Assembly: GCA_016840425.1 (NCBI GenBank)
Contig: JAEOSI010000121.1
Coordinates: forward strand, 1-7,128
Direction of reading: 5' to 3'
From: Candidatus Wukongarchaeum yapensis
GTDB lineage: Archaea > Asgardarchaeota > Wukongarchaeia > Wukongarchaeales > Wukongarchaeaceae
Length of the DNA: 7,128 bases
Positions within the stretch are counted from its first letter, which is position 1; every line of letters begins with the position of its first letter. The notes beneath the pieces are model-generated. The model saw only the letters and a program-made list of their open reading frames with translations, did no database searches and was not told the DNA's origin. Made by a program: the position numbers and the translations under genes. Below, piece after piece: positions 98 through 7,128 of the stretch.

Positions 98-262
98 CCA
101 ACCACAACCCAGTTTCTCCAAGTTTGTTTTTCTTTAAAAATAGAGATAGGGAGGTACTTGAAGCTGAATAATAAAAGATAAAGGACTTATAAGGCTCCTT
201 AGATATAGAAAGGAAGAAGCTTACATTTTAGGAATGGATTGGTCTCATGGTGATGGTTTAAA

Positions 263-967
263 GTGCCTAAGCCTGGTGTAAAGGGAAGAAGCAGTGAGAG
301 GATTGCTCTTGGCATCTTGGAAAGATTAGGCTATGAAATTCTTGAAACTAACAGGATAGTAAATGTGGGTGAGGCTGAGGCGTTTGAAGTTGATATGATA
401 GCCCTCAGCCAGGAAGGACAAAAGTACTGTGTGGAGGTTAAGGCTGGTCAGGCGGGGGTTTCAGACATTCGTCAAGTCTTTGCTGATAGTGAGGTTTTAG
501 GGTTAAAGCCTATGCTTGTCTGTAAGGGTTTTGCCAACGAGGCTGCAGAAGCGGTAGCTAAAAAGCTCGATGTAAAGATGATTCCATTCAGTCAATATTA
601 TGTCCTTTTAGAGCCTGAAGAACTGGAAGTGGTTGTGAGATCTGCTGTTCAAGATGTCTTGAACGAGTATGGTTTTTTCCCTCTTCCTCTTTGGGAAGCA
701 ATTAAAGAAGAAGATTGGAGGTTAATAGAAAGAATAACTGCGGCTGAAAGTTTCAAAGAAGCCGCTCAGCATCTTGATCTAAGCGTTGAAGATTTGGGGC
801 GTAGGATAGGAGATTTAAGAAGAAGGGGAATATTCCCAGGAAAAGGTCAGTCTTTCATGGATTTAAAACGGCATTCTCAACAGCTAATTCAAAGGTACTC
901 CCTCATTCGCAGGCTGGACAAAATTGAGGAACGCTTGAAGAAAATAGAAGAATCGCTTGATCATTGA
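263..967 (+). CDS. PD-(D/E)XK endonuclease-like protein (archaeal RecB/Mrr/YraN-like, COG4998-type) with C-terminal HTH and coiled coil
   Basis: Catalytic motifs E12, V-D44 and E58-V-K60, plus Q71. GTG start preceded by SD-like GGTGA (249-253). HTH-like SFKEAAQHLDLSVEDLGRRIGDL at aa 163-185. Terminal heptad LDKIEERLKKIEESL. Confidence 0.8.
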   Translation: MPKPGVKGRSSERIALGILERLGYEILETNRIVNVGEAEAFEVDMIALSQEGQKYCVEVKAGQAGVSDIRQVFADSEVLGLKPMLVCKGFANEAAEAVAKKLDVKMIPFSQYYVLLEPEELEVVVRSAVQDVLNEYGFFPLPLWEAIKEEDWRLIERITAAESFKEAAQHLDLSVEDLGRRIGDLRRRGIFPGKGQSFMDLKRHSQQLIQRYSLIRRLDKIEERLKKIEESLDH

Positions 968-1014: not shown

Positions 1015-2574
1015 TCAGTCTAAGGTTAAACTGAATTCACAGTGTTTGTCGCCTAGGCCAGGGCATTTTACCTCTTGAGCGGTTACGTGTTTTTTGGTTA
1101 ATTTTTCTATGATGCCTGCTAAGACGCCGGCTTTGTAATCGCACAGTGGGAGTCCTACATTGGAAATGCCGGAAGCGTCGGCGCATTCAAAAACTTTAAA
1201 CGTTATCTCGTCTTTCTTGGCTGTGCCTTCACATTTTAAGTGGTCTCCGCTGAGGAGGAATAAAGGACTGTTAAAGAGTCTTTCTATAAGTGTTATAGAT
1301 TCGTTAGGAGAGGGGGTGTTTTTAACTGTTCTGAACTCGGTTTTCTGTATCAAGTCTCCCACTTTTTTACCTGCGGCATACATTAAGGCACCGTCTATTG
1401 GGTCGGCTAATTTTAGGACGGTGAACTGTTGTTGAAGCGTGGTTATGTGAACGTTGTCCATGACGCCTGATCTGATTTCTCTTCCTTCTAAAACACTGAC
1501 GTTTATGTTTCTTAGTATAGTTTTTAAAAGGGTTGTAAAGATTTCTGGTCGTGCGAGATATCTTAGTTGTTGTTCTTCTTCTTCTTTTTTTTCTTCTTCG
1601 TCTTCTTCTGGTTTAGCGGCTTCTTTTTTTGCTTTGTCTTCTTTTAAGCGTTCGTATTTTTCTTTTGGCATTATTTCAAATTGGCAAGAGCGGTCTCCCA
1701 TGCCCCAGCAGCTACTTTCAAAAACCACGGTTTCTTCGCTGGTTATAGCTTCTAAAAGTCCTGCTATTTTTCCTGCTTCGTAGTGGCAAAGACTTTCTCC
1801 TACAGCAGGGACTCCTGTGGATAGAGCGCTTTCATTGATCCTTAAAAGAGCGTTATCTTCTTCTAAATGCACTAGTCGTGCGTCTCTGGCGCTATAAAGG
1901 CCTAGGGCCATATCATGGTCATATAGGCGTTCAACGCCCCTCACTCCCTCTGTGAAATATTCTGACCTGTTAACTGCCTTTAGGAGGGAGGGGTTGAGGG
2001 CAAAGACCCAGCCGCTGTAGCCTCCTACTTTCCCTATGGCTTTTCCGAGGTTGTAGAGGAGGCTTCCGGCTATCTCGTCTAAGGCGAGAATGGAAAGGGA
2101 GCGTAGTTGGAGGTGGCTGCAGTGCACGTAATCTCCCATGTTTGGTCTTATTCTTTTTCCTTCTTCTCCTACGCTTTGGAGTAGGTTGATGCTTGTATCG
2201 ACTAGTATTTCTCTAGTTAAGCCGTCAGGGGCTATTATTCTTTCAGTTGAAGAGCTTATTATGTTCTTCCACAAGTGGCTGCTTATGACTCCAGCTTCCA
2301 TAGGGCCTTGATCTACCACTATGTCGCCTACGACGAGGGCAGGCAGGTTAGTAACATTGTAGTATGCTCCTAAGTGTTCTTCTTCTTCAACGTCTAAAAT
2401 GGAGATATGGAACATGCCTGAAAGATCTCCAAGTTGGGTTAAAGATCTGTCTAGTTCTTCTTTAGCTTTTTTGCAGTGAACACAATGTTTTGCTGTAAAT
2501 AAAATTACGCGGGTAGGGACGAAATCGTATATTTCACGAAGGTTTGATTCGGTATTTGTTTCCGTTTGAACCAC
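1015..2574 (-). CDS. Thioredoxin-like (CxxC) domain fused to two tandem V4R domains, 519 aa
   Basis: VILFTAKH-C31VHC34 and N-L-P78 give a Trx fold with its cis-Pro position (aa about 21-105). Two internal repeats (aa about 140-301 and 365-517) each carry C-x22-E-x2-C-x7-C (C263/E286/C289/C297 and C478/E501/C504/C512), the V4R signature. GTG start. Confidence 0.85.
   Translation of the reverse strand: MVQTETNTESNLREIYDFVPTRVILFTAKHCVHCKKAKEELDRSLTQLGDLSGMFHISILDVEEEEHLGAYYNVTNLPALVVGDIVVDQGPMEAGVISSHLWKNIISSSTERIIAPDGLTREILVDTSINLLQSVGEEGKRIRPNMGDYVHCSHLQLRSLSILALDEIAGSLLYNLGKAIGKVGGYSGWVFALNPSLLKAVNRSEYFTEGVRGVERLYDHDMALGLYSARDARLVHLEEDNALLRINESALSTGVPAVGESLCHYEAGKIAGLLEAITSEETVVFESSCWGMGDRSCQFEIMPKEKYERLKEDKAKKEAAKPEEDEEEKKEEEEQQLRYLARPEIFTTLLKTILRNINVSVLEGREIRSGVMDNVHITTLQQQFTVLKLADPIDGALMYAAGKKVGDLIQKTEFRTVKNTPSPNESITLIERLFNSPLFLLSGDHLKCEGTAKKDEITFKVFECADASGISNVGLPLCDYKAGVLAGIIEKLTKKHVTAQEVKCPGLGDKHCEFSLTLD
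1567..1668 (-). repeat. Low-complexity Lys/Glu-rich linker between the two V4R domains
   Basis: PKEKYERLKEDKAKKEAAKPEEDEEEKKEEEEQQ, seen as a TCT/TTC-rich tract on the plus strand. Confidence 0.7.
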
Positions 2575-3479: not shown

Positions 3480-3766
3480 ATGGTGTCTCTTAATGTTACG
3501 ATTTTTGGCGCAGGGGCGGGAGGGTCTATGCTTGGGGGGAATAATTAAACATGAAGGAAAAGCTGTGGTTAATCTTGTTGGAAGAAAACCGCACATGGAA
3601 GCAGTAGATAGGAGCGGTTTAACTATAGAGTTTGGAAATAGGCTTTTTAAACGGTTTTATTGCTTTAAAAGGAGAAGAGGTTGGAGTTCCAATAGAAGTA
3701 AATCTTAGTATGACACTTTTGATGAAAAAACTTGCAAAAAATGTAAAAATAAGAGGTAGAGGTTGA
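3480..3766 (+). pseudogene. panE: 2-dehydropantoate 2-reductase (ketopantoate reductase) relic: frameshifted and internally deleted
   Basis: Frame 3 from ATG 3480 reads MVSLNVTIFGAGAGGSMLGG (Rossmann GxGxxG). After a +1 shift in the G6 run (3534-3539) it continues IIKHEGKAVVNLVGRKPHMEAVDRSGLTIE, matching the PanE pattern V.L.GR..H.EA....GL.I. From 3635 a third frame reads EIGFLNGFIALKGEEVGVPIEVNLSMTLLMKKL..., matching the PanE C-terminal EIDxLNG...G...GvPtPvN..L..LvK motif, and ends at TGA 3764-3766. Confidence 0.85.
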
Positions 3767-3817: not shown

Positions 3818-4243
3818 TTAAACGAATGTTTTCGTTATTTCATTTACTGCTTTTCTAAGAAGGTTTTCACTAATTTTTACGTATTTAGGAGCAAGAATTC
3901 CTAGTATGAAAGTGTGATCGTCTACTCTTATTGTTTTAAAAATCACATTGTTTTCTTTGGCTTGAATAACTATATCTTTTAGTTTACCCATTTTTAGTAG
4001 ATCTTGTATTCTGGAGGCAGTAGCGTGAGCAAGAGAGGACATGGCGGCCATTGTTACGGTTTCTTTGCCGTTTTCACTTCCTGCTTCTGCCATAATAAGA
4101 CCGCTTTCAGCGGCTAATATACTGGCTGAAAATTTCCCTACTCTGTTAAGTTCTTCTAGAATTTTGTTGAGAATTGCCGTCCTTGAAAGGGGTTCCTCTT
4201 CGGATTTTTCCTTTTTTTCTTTGAGTTTGTTTGAATTATTCAT
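3818..4243 (-). CDS. Roadblock/LC7 domain protein, divergent type A, 141 aa
   Basis: LNKILEELNRVGKFSASILAAESGLIMAE...MAAMSSL...R...LKMGKLKDIVI fits the Roadblock pattern. Start moved from 4288 to ATG 4243, which has AGGGGT 7 nt upstream (GGGG to start). Confidence 0.85.
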   Translation of the reverse strand: MNNSNKLKEKKEKSEEEPLSRTAILNKILEELNRVGKFSASILAAESGLIMAEAGSENGKETVTMAAMSSLAHATASRIQDLLKMGKLKDIVIQAKENNVIFKTIRVDDHTFILGILAPKYVKISENLLRKAVNEITKTFV

Positions 4244-4253
4244 TAAAAAACCC

Positions 4254-4451
4254 CTATGATATCCAGTATATGCAAATGTTTGATGCAAGTTTTCCCTTAA
4301 TCTCGTCTTCTGAATAATTTCTTTGTTGAAGCTTCTTACCGATTTTTAACGAGGGGACATAGCCTACTTTTGGATCGAAAAAGTTTACTAATCCCCTAAT
4401 GAGAAGGAGTGAAAACGTGGAGATAAAATTTAGGTTTTTCGCCCCCATCAA
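4254..4451 (-). CDS. Small hypothetical protein (64-65 aa) in the gap between Roadblock B and A
   Basis: Fills the intergenic gap with 22-nt and 10-nt spacing to its neighbours. GAGG lies upstream of TTG 4451/ATG 4448. Hydrophobic N-terminal segment. No recognisable family. Confidence 0.3.
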   Translation of the reverse strand: MMGAKNLNFISTFSLLLIRGLVNFFDPKVGYVPSLKIGKKLQQRNYSEDEIKGKLASNICIYWIS

Positions 4452-4473: not shown

Positions 4474-4848
4474 TTAAGTTGCTAGAATTTCTTTTACACC
4501 ATCGACAGTCATTTTTATATCGAAAAAGATCATGCCTAGTTTTGCATCTGCTGGGGCGATAGCGATCAAAACAGCTTCAGGTCCTGCATCCACGGTGACG
4601 GTGACTCCTTCTTTTCCTTTGATTATGACTTGTTCTACCTCGCCACACTTTAGTATGCTACCTACTCTTGTACCTAGGGAGAGCATACCGGCGGACATGG
4701 CAGAAATAGCGTCTTCGTCAATATCTTTTGGCAGTTCGCTTGCCATCATTAAGCCTTCTTTAGAAACGATAGCACTGGCCCGAATCTCGCTCCGTCTTTC
4801 CAGCTCAGTTAGTAAATCTACCAATTTTTTTGTCCTTGTTGCGGACAC
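4474..4848 (-). CDS. Roadblock/LC7 domain protein, canonical archaeal/MglB-like type B, 124 aa (136 aa if ATG 4884 is used)
   Basis: SAIVSKEGLMMASELP...DAISAMSA...R...L..GEVEQVIIKG..G...AGPEAVL.AIA...AKLGMIF is the canonical COG2018 pattern. GTG 4848 has GGGGTTGAT just upstream, while ATG 4884 has no SD. Confidence 0.9.
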   Translation of the reverse strand: MSATRTKKLVDLLTELERRSEIRASAIVSKEGLMMASELPKDIDEDAISAMSAGMLSLGTRVGSILKCGEVEQVIIKGKEGVTVTVDAGPEAVLIAIAPADAKLGMIFFDIKMTVDGVKEILAT

Positions 4849-4929
4849 CAATATCAACCCCTTTGAAGTTGTTAAATCTTTCATTTTTAGAGTAAAATGA
4901 TTTCCTTAATTTTTAAATGGAAGCGAGAT

Positions 4930-4995: not shown

Positions 4996-5490
4996 TTAAG
5001 TGAGACTTTCAGGGGAGATGAACGCTTTTTCAATTCTTTCTCCTGCTATTCGAAGAAGCTTTTTGATGTGTTTTTGACGAGATTTAGGAAAGGAAGTAGA
5101 AAGCACTCCTAAAAGAAAAACATCGGGGGGAATTTTGATAGGTTTAAGGATTAAGATGCTGCCTTCTGTGTTTATTTTTATGTTTTCCAGTTCGCCCATT
5201 GATAGAAAGGCGCCCACTCTTAGGGCAGTTTCATAACCTAGAGAAGACATAGCGGCCAAAGCGCCTGCGAATTCATCTCCAACCCCGTCTCCTGCTTCCG
5301 CCATAAGCAAACCGTTTTCTGCTGCTATAATGCTGCATTTAAACTTGCCAAACCTGTTTAAACGTTTTAGTAGGTTGCTCAAGTAGATTACCCGGCTTAC
5401 CGGCTGGCTTACTTTAGAGGGTTTAGAAGACATCAATTCTTTTATTCTATCGACCAGCTTTTTAAAAGGTTCAAAAGCTCTCACAAACAC
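4996..5490 (-). CDS. Roadblock/LC7 domain protein, divergent type A', with N-terminal amphipathic extension, 164 aa
   Basis: LSNLLKRLNRFGKFKCSIIAAENGLLMAE...LAAMSSL...R...LSMGELENIKI, a paralogue of 3818-4243. GTG start preceded by GGTGGG. GTG 5484 is an alternative start. Confidence 0.85.
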   Translation of the reverse strand: MFVRAFEPFKKLVDRIKELMSSKPSKVSQPVSRVIYLSNLLKRLNRFGKFKCSIIAAENGLLMAEAGDGVGDEFAGALAAMSSLGYETALRVGAFLSMGELENIKINTEGSILILKPIKIPPDVFLLGVLSTSFPKSRQKHIKKLLRIAGERIEKAFISPESLT

Positions 5491-5795: not shown

Positions 5796-7013
5796 TTAGA
5801 GGAGGGTTTTAAGAGAATCTTCTGTTTCTTTGAGGGTTTTACCTGTGGTTATTATGAATGCTTGGTAGGTTTTATCTTTTAGGGGAAAAAGGGGGGTTAT
5901 TATGCCTTTTCTAGGATCTGTTTGGATAAAGTGTTTATTTTCAAGTTTTGGATCGTGAAATAATACTTTCTTAAATATTGCGAAAGAATTGGTTGGGGGA
6001 ATTTTGGGGGTTTCTTGTTTTAGTACGGTGTCAAGGATGATCTGGGTTAGTTTTGGACCTAGGAGGGCGTAAAGTCCTAAAAATGAGGTTGTTATCCGGG
6101 GATTTACTTCAATTAAAAAGACGTCTTCACCTGTAAGAACAATATCAATGCCCACGTATCCGCGGATACCTCTGATTTTTGATAAAAGTTTTTGAGAAAT
6201 CTTGAAAGCTTCTTTTTTCTTTTCATGAATGAGAGGACAATGTCCTCCAGAATAAGATACAAGGAAAGGATCTTCAGAAATATCGATGTTTTGGTAGTTT
6301 AAACACAAGGGTATAGAGCTCAATCCATTGGATATGAGGGAGACGCTGGCGGGAACACCTTCGATCCATTTTTGAACGATAATTTCAGATCTAATTTTTT
6401 TGCTTGAATTAAAAGCTTTTTCCACAGCCTTCTTTATTATCTCGGTATTAAAATTTTTGATGAAAGATAAGCCTTCACAGCCGCAACCATCTACAGGCTT
6501 TACTACGAGGGGTGTGCCTAGTGCTTTAATGGGGTTTAGTACCTTGTCAAAATCATCGTTACGATTAACAACAACTGTGGGAGGGATTTTTATTCCCAGC
6601 TTTTCTGTTAAGCCGTTCACTTTGAGCTTGTTTGAAGCAAAATTGACAGCAAAGGGGGAGGGGGCAAGTAAGACAGCCTTATGCGCTACAATGGAGGAAT
6701 AATTTTCCAAGATACCGTCACTTTCAGGGGCGATGACTAAGCAGGCATCAAAATCACTTATAACACGATCTAAGAAATTTTGAAGTAGCCCTCCTTTGAG
6801 GAGTTCAACAGATTTTGTGTTAAACAAGGGGTAATAATCTTTGATTCTGTCATCAAGGGTGGTGGTCACAAAAACTCCTTCGCACTTGGAGAAACCATCA
6901 ACACAAGCTCTAAGCATAGCAAATCCTTCGCATAGAATATCAAAAGGAAGACTTTCTGTCTTCGCTACACCACCGCCAGAAAAATGCTCTAAAACTAACA
7001 AGTCTAAAACCAA
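5796..7013 (-). CDS. mfnD: ATP-grasp ligase of the MfnD (tyramine--L-glutamate ligase, COG1821) family, about 405 aa
   Basis: The family N-terminus LLVLEHFSGGG...EGFAML, then LVIAPESDGIL and ASNK. ATP-grasp motifs VVKPVDG, IVQKWIEG, YVGIDIV and FLIEVNPRITTS. Start moved from 7073 to TTG 7013 (or 7016), which follows AGGGGT. The ATP-grasp family call is firm and the exact substrate is inferred. Confidence 0.75.
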   Translation of the reverse strand: MVLDLLVLEHFSGGGVAKTESLPFDILCEGFAMLRACVDGFSKCEGVFVTTTLDDRIKDYYPLFNTKSVELLKGGLLQNFLDRVISDFDACLVIAPESDGILENYSSIVAHKAVLLAPSPFAVNFASNKLKVNGLTEKLGIKIPPTVVVNRNDDFDKVLNPIKALGTPLVVKPVDGCGCEGLSFIKNFNTEIIKKAVEKAFNSSKKIRSEIIVQKWIEGVPASVSLISNGLSSIPLCLNYQNIDISEDPFLVSYSGGHCPLIHEKKKEAFKISQKLLSKIRGIRGYVGIDIVLTGEDVFLIEVNPRITTSFLGLYALLGPKLTQIILDTVLKQETPKIPPTNSFAIFKKVLFHDPKLENKHFIQTDPRKGIITPLFPLKDKTYQAFIITTGKTLKETEDSLKTLL

Positions 7014-7128
7014 CAAAAAAACCCCTATTATAAAAAAGAAAGTGGGTGAATGAGCGCTTGTTACAACCTGCATAGGAACTTTAAGCTGACGAACAGTAAA
7101 ACTTAACGGGTCTTTATAATGATCGTTT

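Follow-up and report, generated by a model that had tools for sequence, protein, structure and literature searches.

The 7,128-nucleotide stretch of the Candidatus Wukongarchaeum yapensis genome analysed here (contig JAEOSI010000121.1, C116 in our numbering; hereafter the window), which derives from a metagenome-assembled genome (MAG) of 2.16 Mb that is 92% complete, encodes on its minus strand a protein in which a thioredoxin (Trx) domain is fused to two consecutive V4R domains. This Trx-V4R-V4R protein belongs to a small family restricted to the Asgard archaea, which is real, conserved and built from known kinds of domain in a new arrangement; a fusion of V4R with thioredoxin is not described in the literature that we searched, and the paper on Asgard TRAPPC3 (PMC10933270) makes no mention of thioredoxin. 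By analogy with characterised archaeal systems we tentatively favour the view that it may act as a redox switch based on thiols and zinc, with the tethered thioredoxin serving the V4R cysteines. Asgard V4R/TRAPPC3-like proteins are ranked among the eukaryote-like signature proteins of these archaea, and we know of none for which a function has been established.

Domain layout, conservation and predicted structure

The gene begins with a GTG codon, and two homologues, 99% and 87% identical, have the same start position. Among named relatives of the source genome the nearest is a Candidatus Hodarchaeota MAG, whose copy of the gene is 90% identical. An earlier note on this DNA, made from the sequence alone, had recognised a Trx fold with CVHC at residues 31–34, two duplicated V4R units that both keep a C-x22-E-x2-C-x7-C motif (residues 263–297 and 478–512), a long charged linker and the absence of an output domain, and all of these features were borne out. 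Pfam places Thioredoxin (PF00085 / CL0172) at residues 21–82, above the gathering cut-off, and V4R (PF02830) twice (E 4e-31, 107 bits against a cut-off of 31), and matches nothing beyond these two models in the protein; a V4R scan of the source genome gave 61.4 and 55 bits. The V4R halves (residues 110–315 and 340–519) align to each other with 29% identity (E 9e-23). An NCBIfam scan returned partial, sub-threshold likeness to MsvR (for the V4R part), BchJ, MJ0307-type thioredoxin and PDO. The features of the gene, all on the minus strand, are as follows.

1015–2574, minus strand: Trx-V4R-V4R gene (P0001), 519 amino acids plus stop
2251–2520, minus strand: thioredoxin-fold domain of archaeal PDO/Mj0307 type, residues 19–108
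2473–2484, minus strand: CxxC motif C31-V-H-C34, both Cys invariant, middle dipeptide variable
2341–2343, minus strand: P78, invariant, aligned to the thioredoxin/PDI cis-Pro (...YPT.../...LPA... position)
2170–2295, minus strand: helical connector of two helices, residues 94–135, 19% mean identity
1666–2169, minus strand: V4R/Bet3-fold unit 1, residues 136–303, Pfam V4R, with PoxR, MopR and TRAPPC3 as structural matches
2107–2148, minus strand: R143-x4-D148-x2-H151-x4-Q156 of unit 1, family consensus I-R-P-x-I-G-D-Y-V-H-I-x-x-L-Q
1684–1788, minus strand: predicted zinc site 1, C263/E286/C289/C297, aligned to the C...E..C.......C segment of PoxR/MopR
1540–1665, minus strand: charged linker, residues 304–345, 67% D/E/K/R, 15% identity, variable in length and sequence
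1018–1539, minus strand: V4R/Bet3-fold unit 2, residues 346–519, Pfam V4R at 458–517, with MJ1460, Bet3 and PoxR as structural matches over 338–519
1432–1473, minus strand: R368-x4-D373-x2-H376-x4-Q381 of unit 2, from the alignment
1039–1143, minus strand: predicted zinc site 2, C478/E501/C504/C512, from the alignment

Conservation was assessed in an alignment of 22 sequences with ~30% pairwise identity (~28% within the Trx domain). By profile the Trx domain has its nearest relatives in archaeal PDOs and the Mj0307 thioredoxin (E 1e-16 to 5e-14), and C31, C34 and P78 line up with CGHC and YPT in PDI A4. These three residues and F26 are invariant in all 22 members and, with its CxxC and cis-Pro, the domain looks catalytically competent. 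The dipeptide between the two cysteines differs in nearly every member (VH, AF, YR, KW, GP, YA, KF, AP, PP, AS and others). The earlier note had taken CxHC as a sign of DsbA/PDI-like oxidising activity, an argument that fails because the dipeptide varies freely and a second copy encoded by this genome reads CGPC. The Trx-V4R-V4R sequence carries no hydrophobic N-terminal signal and the protein is predicted to be cytoplasmic. Assignment as a DsbA/PDI-type oxidising enzyme was rejected on the variable dipeptide, the missing signal and the closest relatives, which are the cytoplasmic PDO and Mj0307 proteins.

In predicted zinc site 1 the Glu and the last two Cys ligands are present in 22/22 members and the first ligand is Cys in 20/22 and Asp in 2/22, whereas site 2 is a full C/E/C/C set in 18/22 and clearly degenerate in two. 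The R-x4-D-x2-H-x4-Q motif (RDHQ), newly noticed here and lying N-terminal to the Pfam V4R core, is found in every member in repeat 1 and in repeat 2 is exact in 20 of the 22, the other two showing conservative changes. It is rare among ordinary single V4R proteins, and no counterpart was found at the sequence level in solved V4R structures. Identity is lowest in the connector, which has long insertions in a subfamily of 530–580 amino acids, and in the charged linker, predicted to be a helix that continues into the first helix of unit 2. The positions that had been given earlier for C152 and H154 in repeat 1, and for C448 and C464 in repeat 2 (the latter facing S249 of repeat 1), are all correct. 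The suggestion that the extra cysteines are functional thiols was rejected for C152 and C448 as family features (2/22 and 4/22 members, respectively): both are lineage-specific, which excludes them as targets of Trx in the family at large. C464, by comparison, is shared by 13/22.

The AlphaFold2 model of the protein has a mean local confidence (pLDDT) of 83.6 and a global score (pTM) of 0.81, and that of a Heimdallarchaeaceae member, ~30% identical, has values of 85.3 and 0.86. A pTM this high in a chain of ~520 residues suggests that the relative placement of the domains is predicted with confidence. Over the model range 149..519 many single Bet3 chains can be aligned, with elements of both repeats in use, which argues for intimate V4R-V4R packing. 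On these models the single-chain V4R pair put forward in the earlier note is plausible, with the two units predicted to form one compact counterpart of the V4R/TRAPPC3 dimer. The packing is consistent with the dimer of Thor-TRAPPC3, whose interface runs through N-terminal helices, and both Thor-TRAPPC3 and PoxR bind zinc at the same place as the predicted V4R zinc site (PMC10933270). A complex prediction for the Trx part (residues 17–112) against the V4R part (117–519) scored 0.00 with controls not run, and is evidence neither way. The overall interpretation in the earlier note, a Trx domain that controls the thiol/zinc state of an intramolecular V4R pair, holds for its architecture and general idea and falls for its CxHC and extra-cysteine arguments.

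In the thiol/zinc redox switch that we propose, oxidants or the cellular thiol pool would alter the Zn-thiolate cysteines of the V4R pair, and the tethered thioredoxin domain would swap disulfides with these cysteines and so reset them, its reducing power being supplied by the cellular thioredoxin reductase system. The analysis establishes the domain layout, its conservation, the fold, the compactness and the distribution, and from these features we infer the redox activity, the zinc binding, the Trx-to-V4R thiol exchange and the partners. As the protein is without DNA-binding or enzymatic output, the resulting conformation of the V4R pair would be read through protein-protein contacts; candidate partners vary by lineage, and here the candidate would be the product of a Cys-bearing gene for a TrmB-type winged helix-turn-helix (wHTH) protein 292 bp upstream. 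Related chemistry is known in trans, with the Methanosarcina thioredoxin system reducing the cysteines of MsvR and PDO reducing the redox regulator SurR (PMC7278568).

An Asgard-restricted family and its genomic neighbourhood

When 1.84 billion representatives (50% identity) were searched exhaustively with phmmer, 346 matched, 24 of them below 1e-30, and ~25 representatives of 480–580 amino acids share the full architecture of an N-terminal CxxC and two V4R units; a word-index homologue search returned only two close relatives. Among 400 genomes from the Asgard phylum, a profile search detected members in 91. Nearly every genome has one in ~10 taxonomic families (30/31, 19/22 and 12/12 genomes are examples), several Heimdallarchaeia-type lineages among them, and other families have none (0/135, 0/19 and 0/14). 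By NCBI name the carriers are Hodarchaeota/Hodarchaeales, Heimdallarchaeota/-aceae, Jordarchaeales and one Promethearchaeota MAG. Members are labelled only "V4R domain-containing protein" or "thioredoxin family protein" at NCBI and "predicted hydrocarbon binding protein/glutaredoxin" at JGI, and in the ESM Atlas 95 archaeal proteins with this architecture form a cluster labelled hypothetical. Metatranscriptome contigs from one library, of a strain 95–99% identical, cover the gene in part, at positions 996–1554 and 1728–2226 of the window, where DNA carry-over is possible.

The source genome has two Trx-V4R-V4R copies, the second of which is this:

Contig C123 4419–5900, minus strand: Trx-V4R-V4R copy of 493 amino acids with CGPC, adjoining NMN-adenylyltransferase-like and ribosome-biogenesis genes

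In a maximum-likelihood tree the copy under study sits on a long branch as sister to Jordarchaeia sequences (100/100 support), and the C123 copy clusters with mainstream Hodarchaeales orthologues. At least four canonical stand-alone thioredoxins are encoded besides these two copies, and the fused thioredoxin is therefore likely to be specialised. Other tandem-V4R proteins have a zinc ribbon, another CxxC module, in the N-terminal place of the thioredoxin (zinc ribbon + V4R + V4R, ~410 amino acids; P0037, P0071 and P0100) or consist of the bare V4R pair (~360 amino acids; P0038, P0044 and P0048). Because these relatives carry a zinc ribbon or nothing instead of the thioredoxin, the tandem V4R pair looks like the core module and the N-terminal CxxC module like an exchangeable accessory. 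Some of the other tandem-V4R proteins also match the MetOD1 or ATC_hydrolase models.

Around the gene the window holds the following features, the minus-strand order being ATP-grasp, three Roadblock/LC7 genes, the ApbA/PanE remnant (on the opposite strand), the wHTH gene, the 292-bp spacer and the Trx-V4R-V4R gene.

5796–7073, minus strand: ATP-grasp_3 protein with a hydrophobic N-terminus, best NCBIfam match MfnD (tyramine-glutamate ligase; 137 against a cut-off of 400)
3818–4288, 4474–4884 and 4996–5490, minus strand: three tandem Roadblock/LC7 genes (Pfam)
3493–3708, plus strand: N-terminal remnant of an ApbA/PanE ketopantoate reductase, 71 amino acids, 83% identity over 40 amino acids
2867–3268, minus strand: TrmB/Lrs14/Sta1-like single-domain wHTH protein, 133 amino acids, upstream of Trx-V4R-V4R
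263–967, plus strand: open reading frame (ORF) of 234 amino acids with weak likeness to UPF0102/YraN/NERD-like nucleases and a LysR-type HTH, convergent and downstream, kept in the close relative

The middle Roadblock gene is canonical (E 1.4e-15) and the outer two, which are paralogous to each other, are extended at the N-terminus and score weakly with Pfam; the three proteins could form a hetero-oligomeric set. In a 90%-identical relative an intact ApbA/PanE gene (310 amino acids, opposite strand; L012 5861–6793) lies at the same place, and the remnant here is a case of recent gene decay. The gene or its remnant divides the Roadblock triad from the wHTH and Trx-V4R-V4R genes, and the spacer between these last two is 655 bp in the same relative. 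With an opposite-strand gene in between and spacers of this length, a co-transcribed unit of wHTH, Trx-V4R-V4R and Roadblock triad was rejected. The wHTH protein has three N-terminal cysteines (C16, C23 and C29), also kept in the 90%-identical relative, and is reminiscent of the TrmB-type regulator OxsR, a thiol switch (PMC9426492), a likeness drawn by description rather than by alignment.

Neighbours were compared at 20 loci from ~10 taxonomic families. The gene order seen here is kept only within the genus, where ApbA is intact, and the loci of other lineages are arranged as follows.

Family f10 (COX1-bearing), L051 2221–8365, minus strand: TrmB upstream (256 amino acids, no Cys), Trx-V4R-V4R, then downstream a Ras-family GTPase (187 amino acids, E 1.5e-51), a 110-amino-acid ORF and an HdrD-like CCG/4Fe-4S protein (679 amino acids)
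Family f11: Roadblock gene adjacent, divergent
Family f13, L055 7599–8003 and L061 7502–7999, plus strand: AhpC/TSA peroxiredoxin directly downstream on the same strand, gap 8–105 bp
Jordarchaeia, L013 7515–8099, L062 7509–7895 and L056 5571–5930: small protein downstream on the same strand, seven conserved Cys, no Pfam match
Heimdallarchaeaceae (f8): Cys-free membrane protein as neighbour

In f13 the Trx-V4R-V4R and peroxiredoxin genes possibly form an operon.

Alternative readings of the fusion

The neighbours of redox type (the f13 peroxiredoxin, the f10 HdrD-like protein, the Jordarchaeia seven-Cys protein and the Cys-bearing wHTH protein here) would fit a thiol/zinc redox switch, as would the zinc ribbon, itself a CxxC module, of related tandem-V4R proteins and the four or more stand-alone thioredoxins of the genome. 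Several observations weigh against it. V4R is a sensor or ligand module in all characterised cases (phenols for PoxR, MopR and DmpR; palmitate for Bet3), and the role of zinc may be structural alone, which is the general assumption for MopR and PoxR. Two of the 22 members have lost zinc site 2 and kept the RDHQ motif, which hints at a core function other than zinc thiolates. No operon partner is conserved across the family among the 20 loci, so the partners are guesses. The four families with COX1 are all carriers, and COX1 is lacking from six carrier families and from the source genome itself, which belongs to one of these; a specific link to aerobic respiration was rejected, since only 4 of the ~10 carrier families have COX1. 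The record of V4R as a sensor speaks instead for the main rival, in which the logic of the switch is reversed and the protein is a ligand-gated or client-targeted thioredoxin with the V4R pair as input and Trx as output. The RDHQ motifs and the internal cavities typical of V4R/Bet3 would bind a client protein, a tetrapyrrole or some small hydrophobic ligand, and Trx would reduce specific clients such as a peroxiredoxin or a thiol-switch regulator. The similarity to BchJ, the JGI label, the other housekeeping thioredoxins in the genome and the peroxiredoxin immediately downstream in f13 all fit this scheme, as does the RDHQ motif, which is the best-conserved feature of both repeats, above zinc site 2, and rare in generic V4R domains. 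The peroxiredoxin adjacency is, however, confined to one taxonomic family, and the CxxC dipeptide, which sets the redox potential, varies even between close subgroups, which would be unusual for an enzyme with a fixed client; we consider this rival rather unlikely. Free variation of the dipeptide would also fit a non-catalytic Trx-like domain, its CxxC binding a metal or Fe-S cluster or being structural, in a static binding protein stabilised by zinc. At the position of E. coli Trx Asp26 the alignment shows a hydrophobic residue, and the sister architectures with a zinc ribbon in place of the thioredoxin point the same way. Against this stand the invariant cis-Pro and CxxC, the catalytic signature of the Trx fold, and the count of only two conserved cysteines in the domain, fewer than a mononuclear site in a single chain would need, and we find a non-catalytic domain very improbable.

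The V4R pair might also mimic the Bet3-Trs33/TRAPPC3-C6 heterodimer as a TRAPP-like scaffold that works with Roadblock/longin proteins and Ras-superfamily GTPases, with Trx providing redox control. Neighbours of Roadblock or GTPase type are found in 3 of the ~10 families, but the source genome holds ~9 Roadblock and ~21 Ras matches, and such adjacency is therefore weakly above chance; moreover, ApbA, here reduced to a remnant, lies on the opposite strand between the Roadblock triad and the Trx-V4R-V4R gene. The protein has no Pfam match to TRAPP (PF04051) at E values up to 0.1 and is of V4R type with a PoxR-like C/E/C/C site, and PoxR and MopR score on par with Bet3 as structural relatives. 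When the source genome was scanned for TRAPP, only proteins on contigs C127 and C269 matched, weakly, and Trx-V4R-V4R was not among them. The C127 protein, which adjoins two Ras GTPase genes, is the better TRAPP-like candidate:

C127 3–1226, minus strand: protein of at least 408 amino acids with a C-terminal V4R, Pfam TRAPP E 2.4e-5, below the cut-off
C127 1482–1979 and 2350–2823, plus strand: two Ras-family GTPase genes, divergent from the V4R gene

A TRAPP-like role is possible and weakly supported, and we judge it improbable. A redox-gated, single-chain Bet3-like heterodimer acting on Roadblock/longin proteins and Ras GTPases would be a long shot, too, or else a protein whose invariant RDHQ motifs bind a tetrapyrrole or another redox-active ligand.

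The physical coupling of V4R to thioredoxin offers a biochemical handle in the form of thiol chemistry, zinc content and trapping mutants. Were the protein a thiol/zinc redox switch, it would represent a novel kind of redox sensor in archaea, and the MsvR/thioredoxin principle would reach past the methanogens to lineages whose described metabolism is related to oxygen and reactive oxygen species. Involvement in Roadblock/GTPase signalling would tie redox state to proto-trafficking machinery, and with a Bet3-like role the archaea nearest to eukaryotes would possess a counterpart of the TRAPP core under thiol control. If RDHQ binds a tetrapyrrole or redox-active ligand, the family would constitute a novel class of redox or gas sensors built on V4R.

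Comparison with known systems

The other tandem-V4R proteins share the two V4R domains in one chain, and some share RDHQ, but none has a thioredoxin domain. On the thioredoxin side, PfPDO (1A8L), PhPDO (1J08) and Mj0307 (1FO5) are cytoplasmic archaeal redoxins with the same CxxC and cis-Pro; PDOs, however, comprise a pair of Trx units and lack V4R, and Mj0307 stands alone with ~85 amino acids. The protein does not belong to the PDO family (TIGR02187), scoring 15.7 bits against a cut-off of 185 with a single Trx unit. On the V4R side, the fold similarity to Thor-TRAPPC3 (7YH2/7YH3) and to Bet3/TRAPPC3-TRAPPC6 is real, but those proteins form their pair from two chains with four Cys zinc ligands, whereas here a C/E/C/C set, a single chain and a fused thioredoxin are combined with no Pfam TRAPP match. 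Both repeats share the Cys/Glu/Cys/Cys ligand pattern of PoxR and MopR. PoxR, MopR, DmpR and XylR use V4R as the N-terminal sensor of homodimeric AAA+/HTH activators, while the Asgard protein is a covalent tandem with no AAA+ or HTH domain, and its RDHQ motif is absent from these four at the sequence level.

The proposed mechanism has its parallel in MsvR, in which a V4R with a conserved cysteine cluster (NCBIfam NF053755, E 1.2e-19 over the V4R part) is switched by cysteine oxidation and reduced by thioredoxin (PMC7278568). The Trx-V4R-V4R protein is not itself an MsvR, reaching 71 bits against a cut-off of 220 over the V4R part only and with no HTH. MsvR is a methanogen protein with an N-terminal HTH and one V4R that is served by thioredoxin in trans, whereas the Asgard protein has two V4R domains and its thioredoxin fused. 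We propose that the Trx-V4R-V4R redox switch would be a fused, intramolecular form of the Methanosarcina thioredoxin acting on MsvR.

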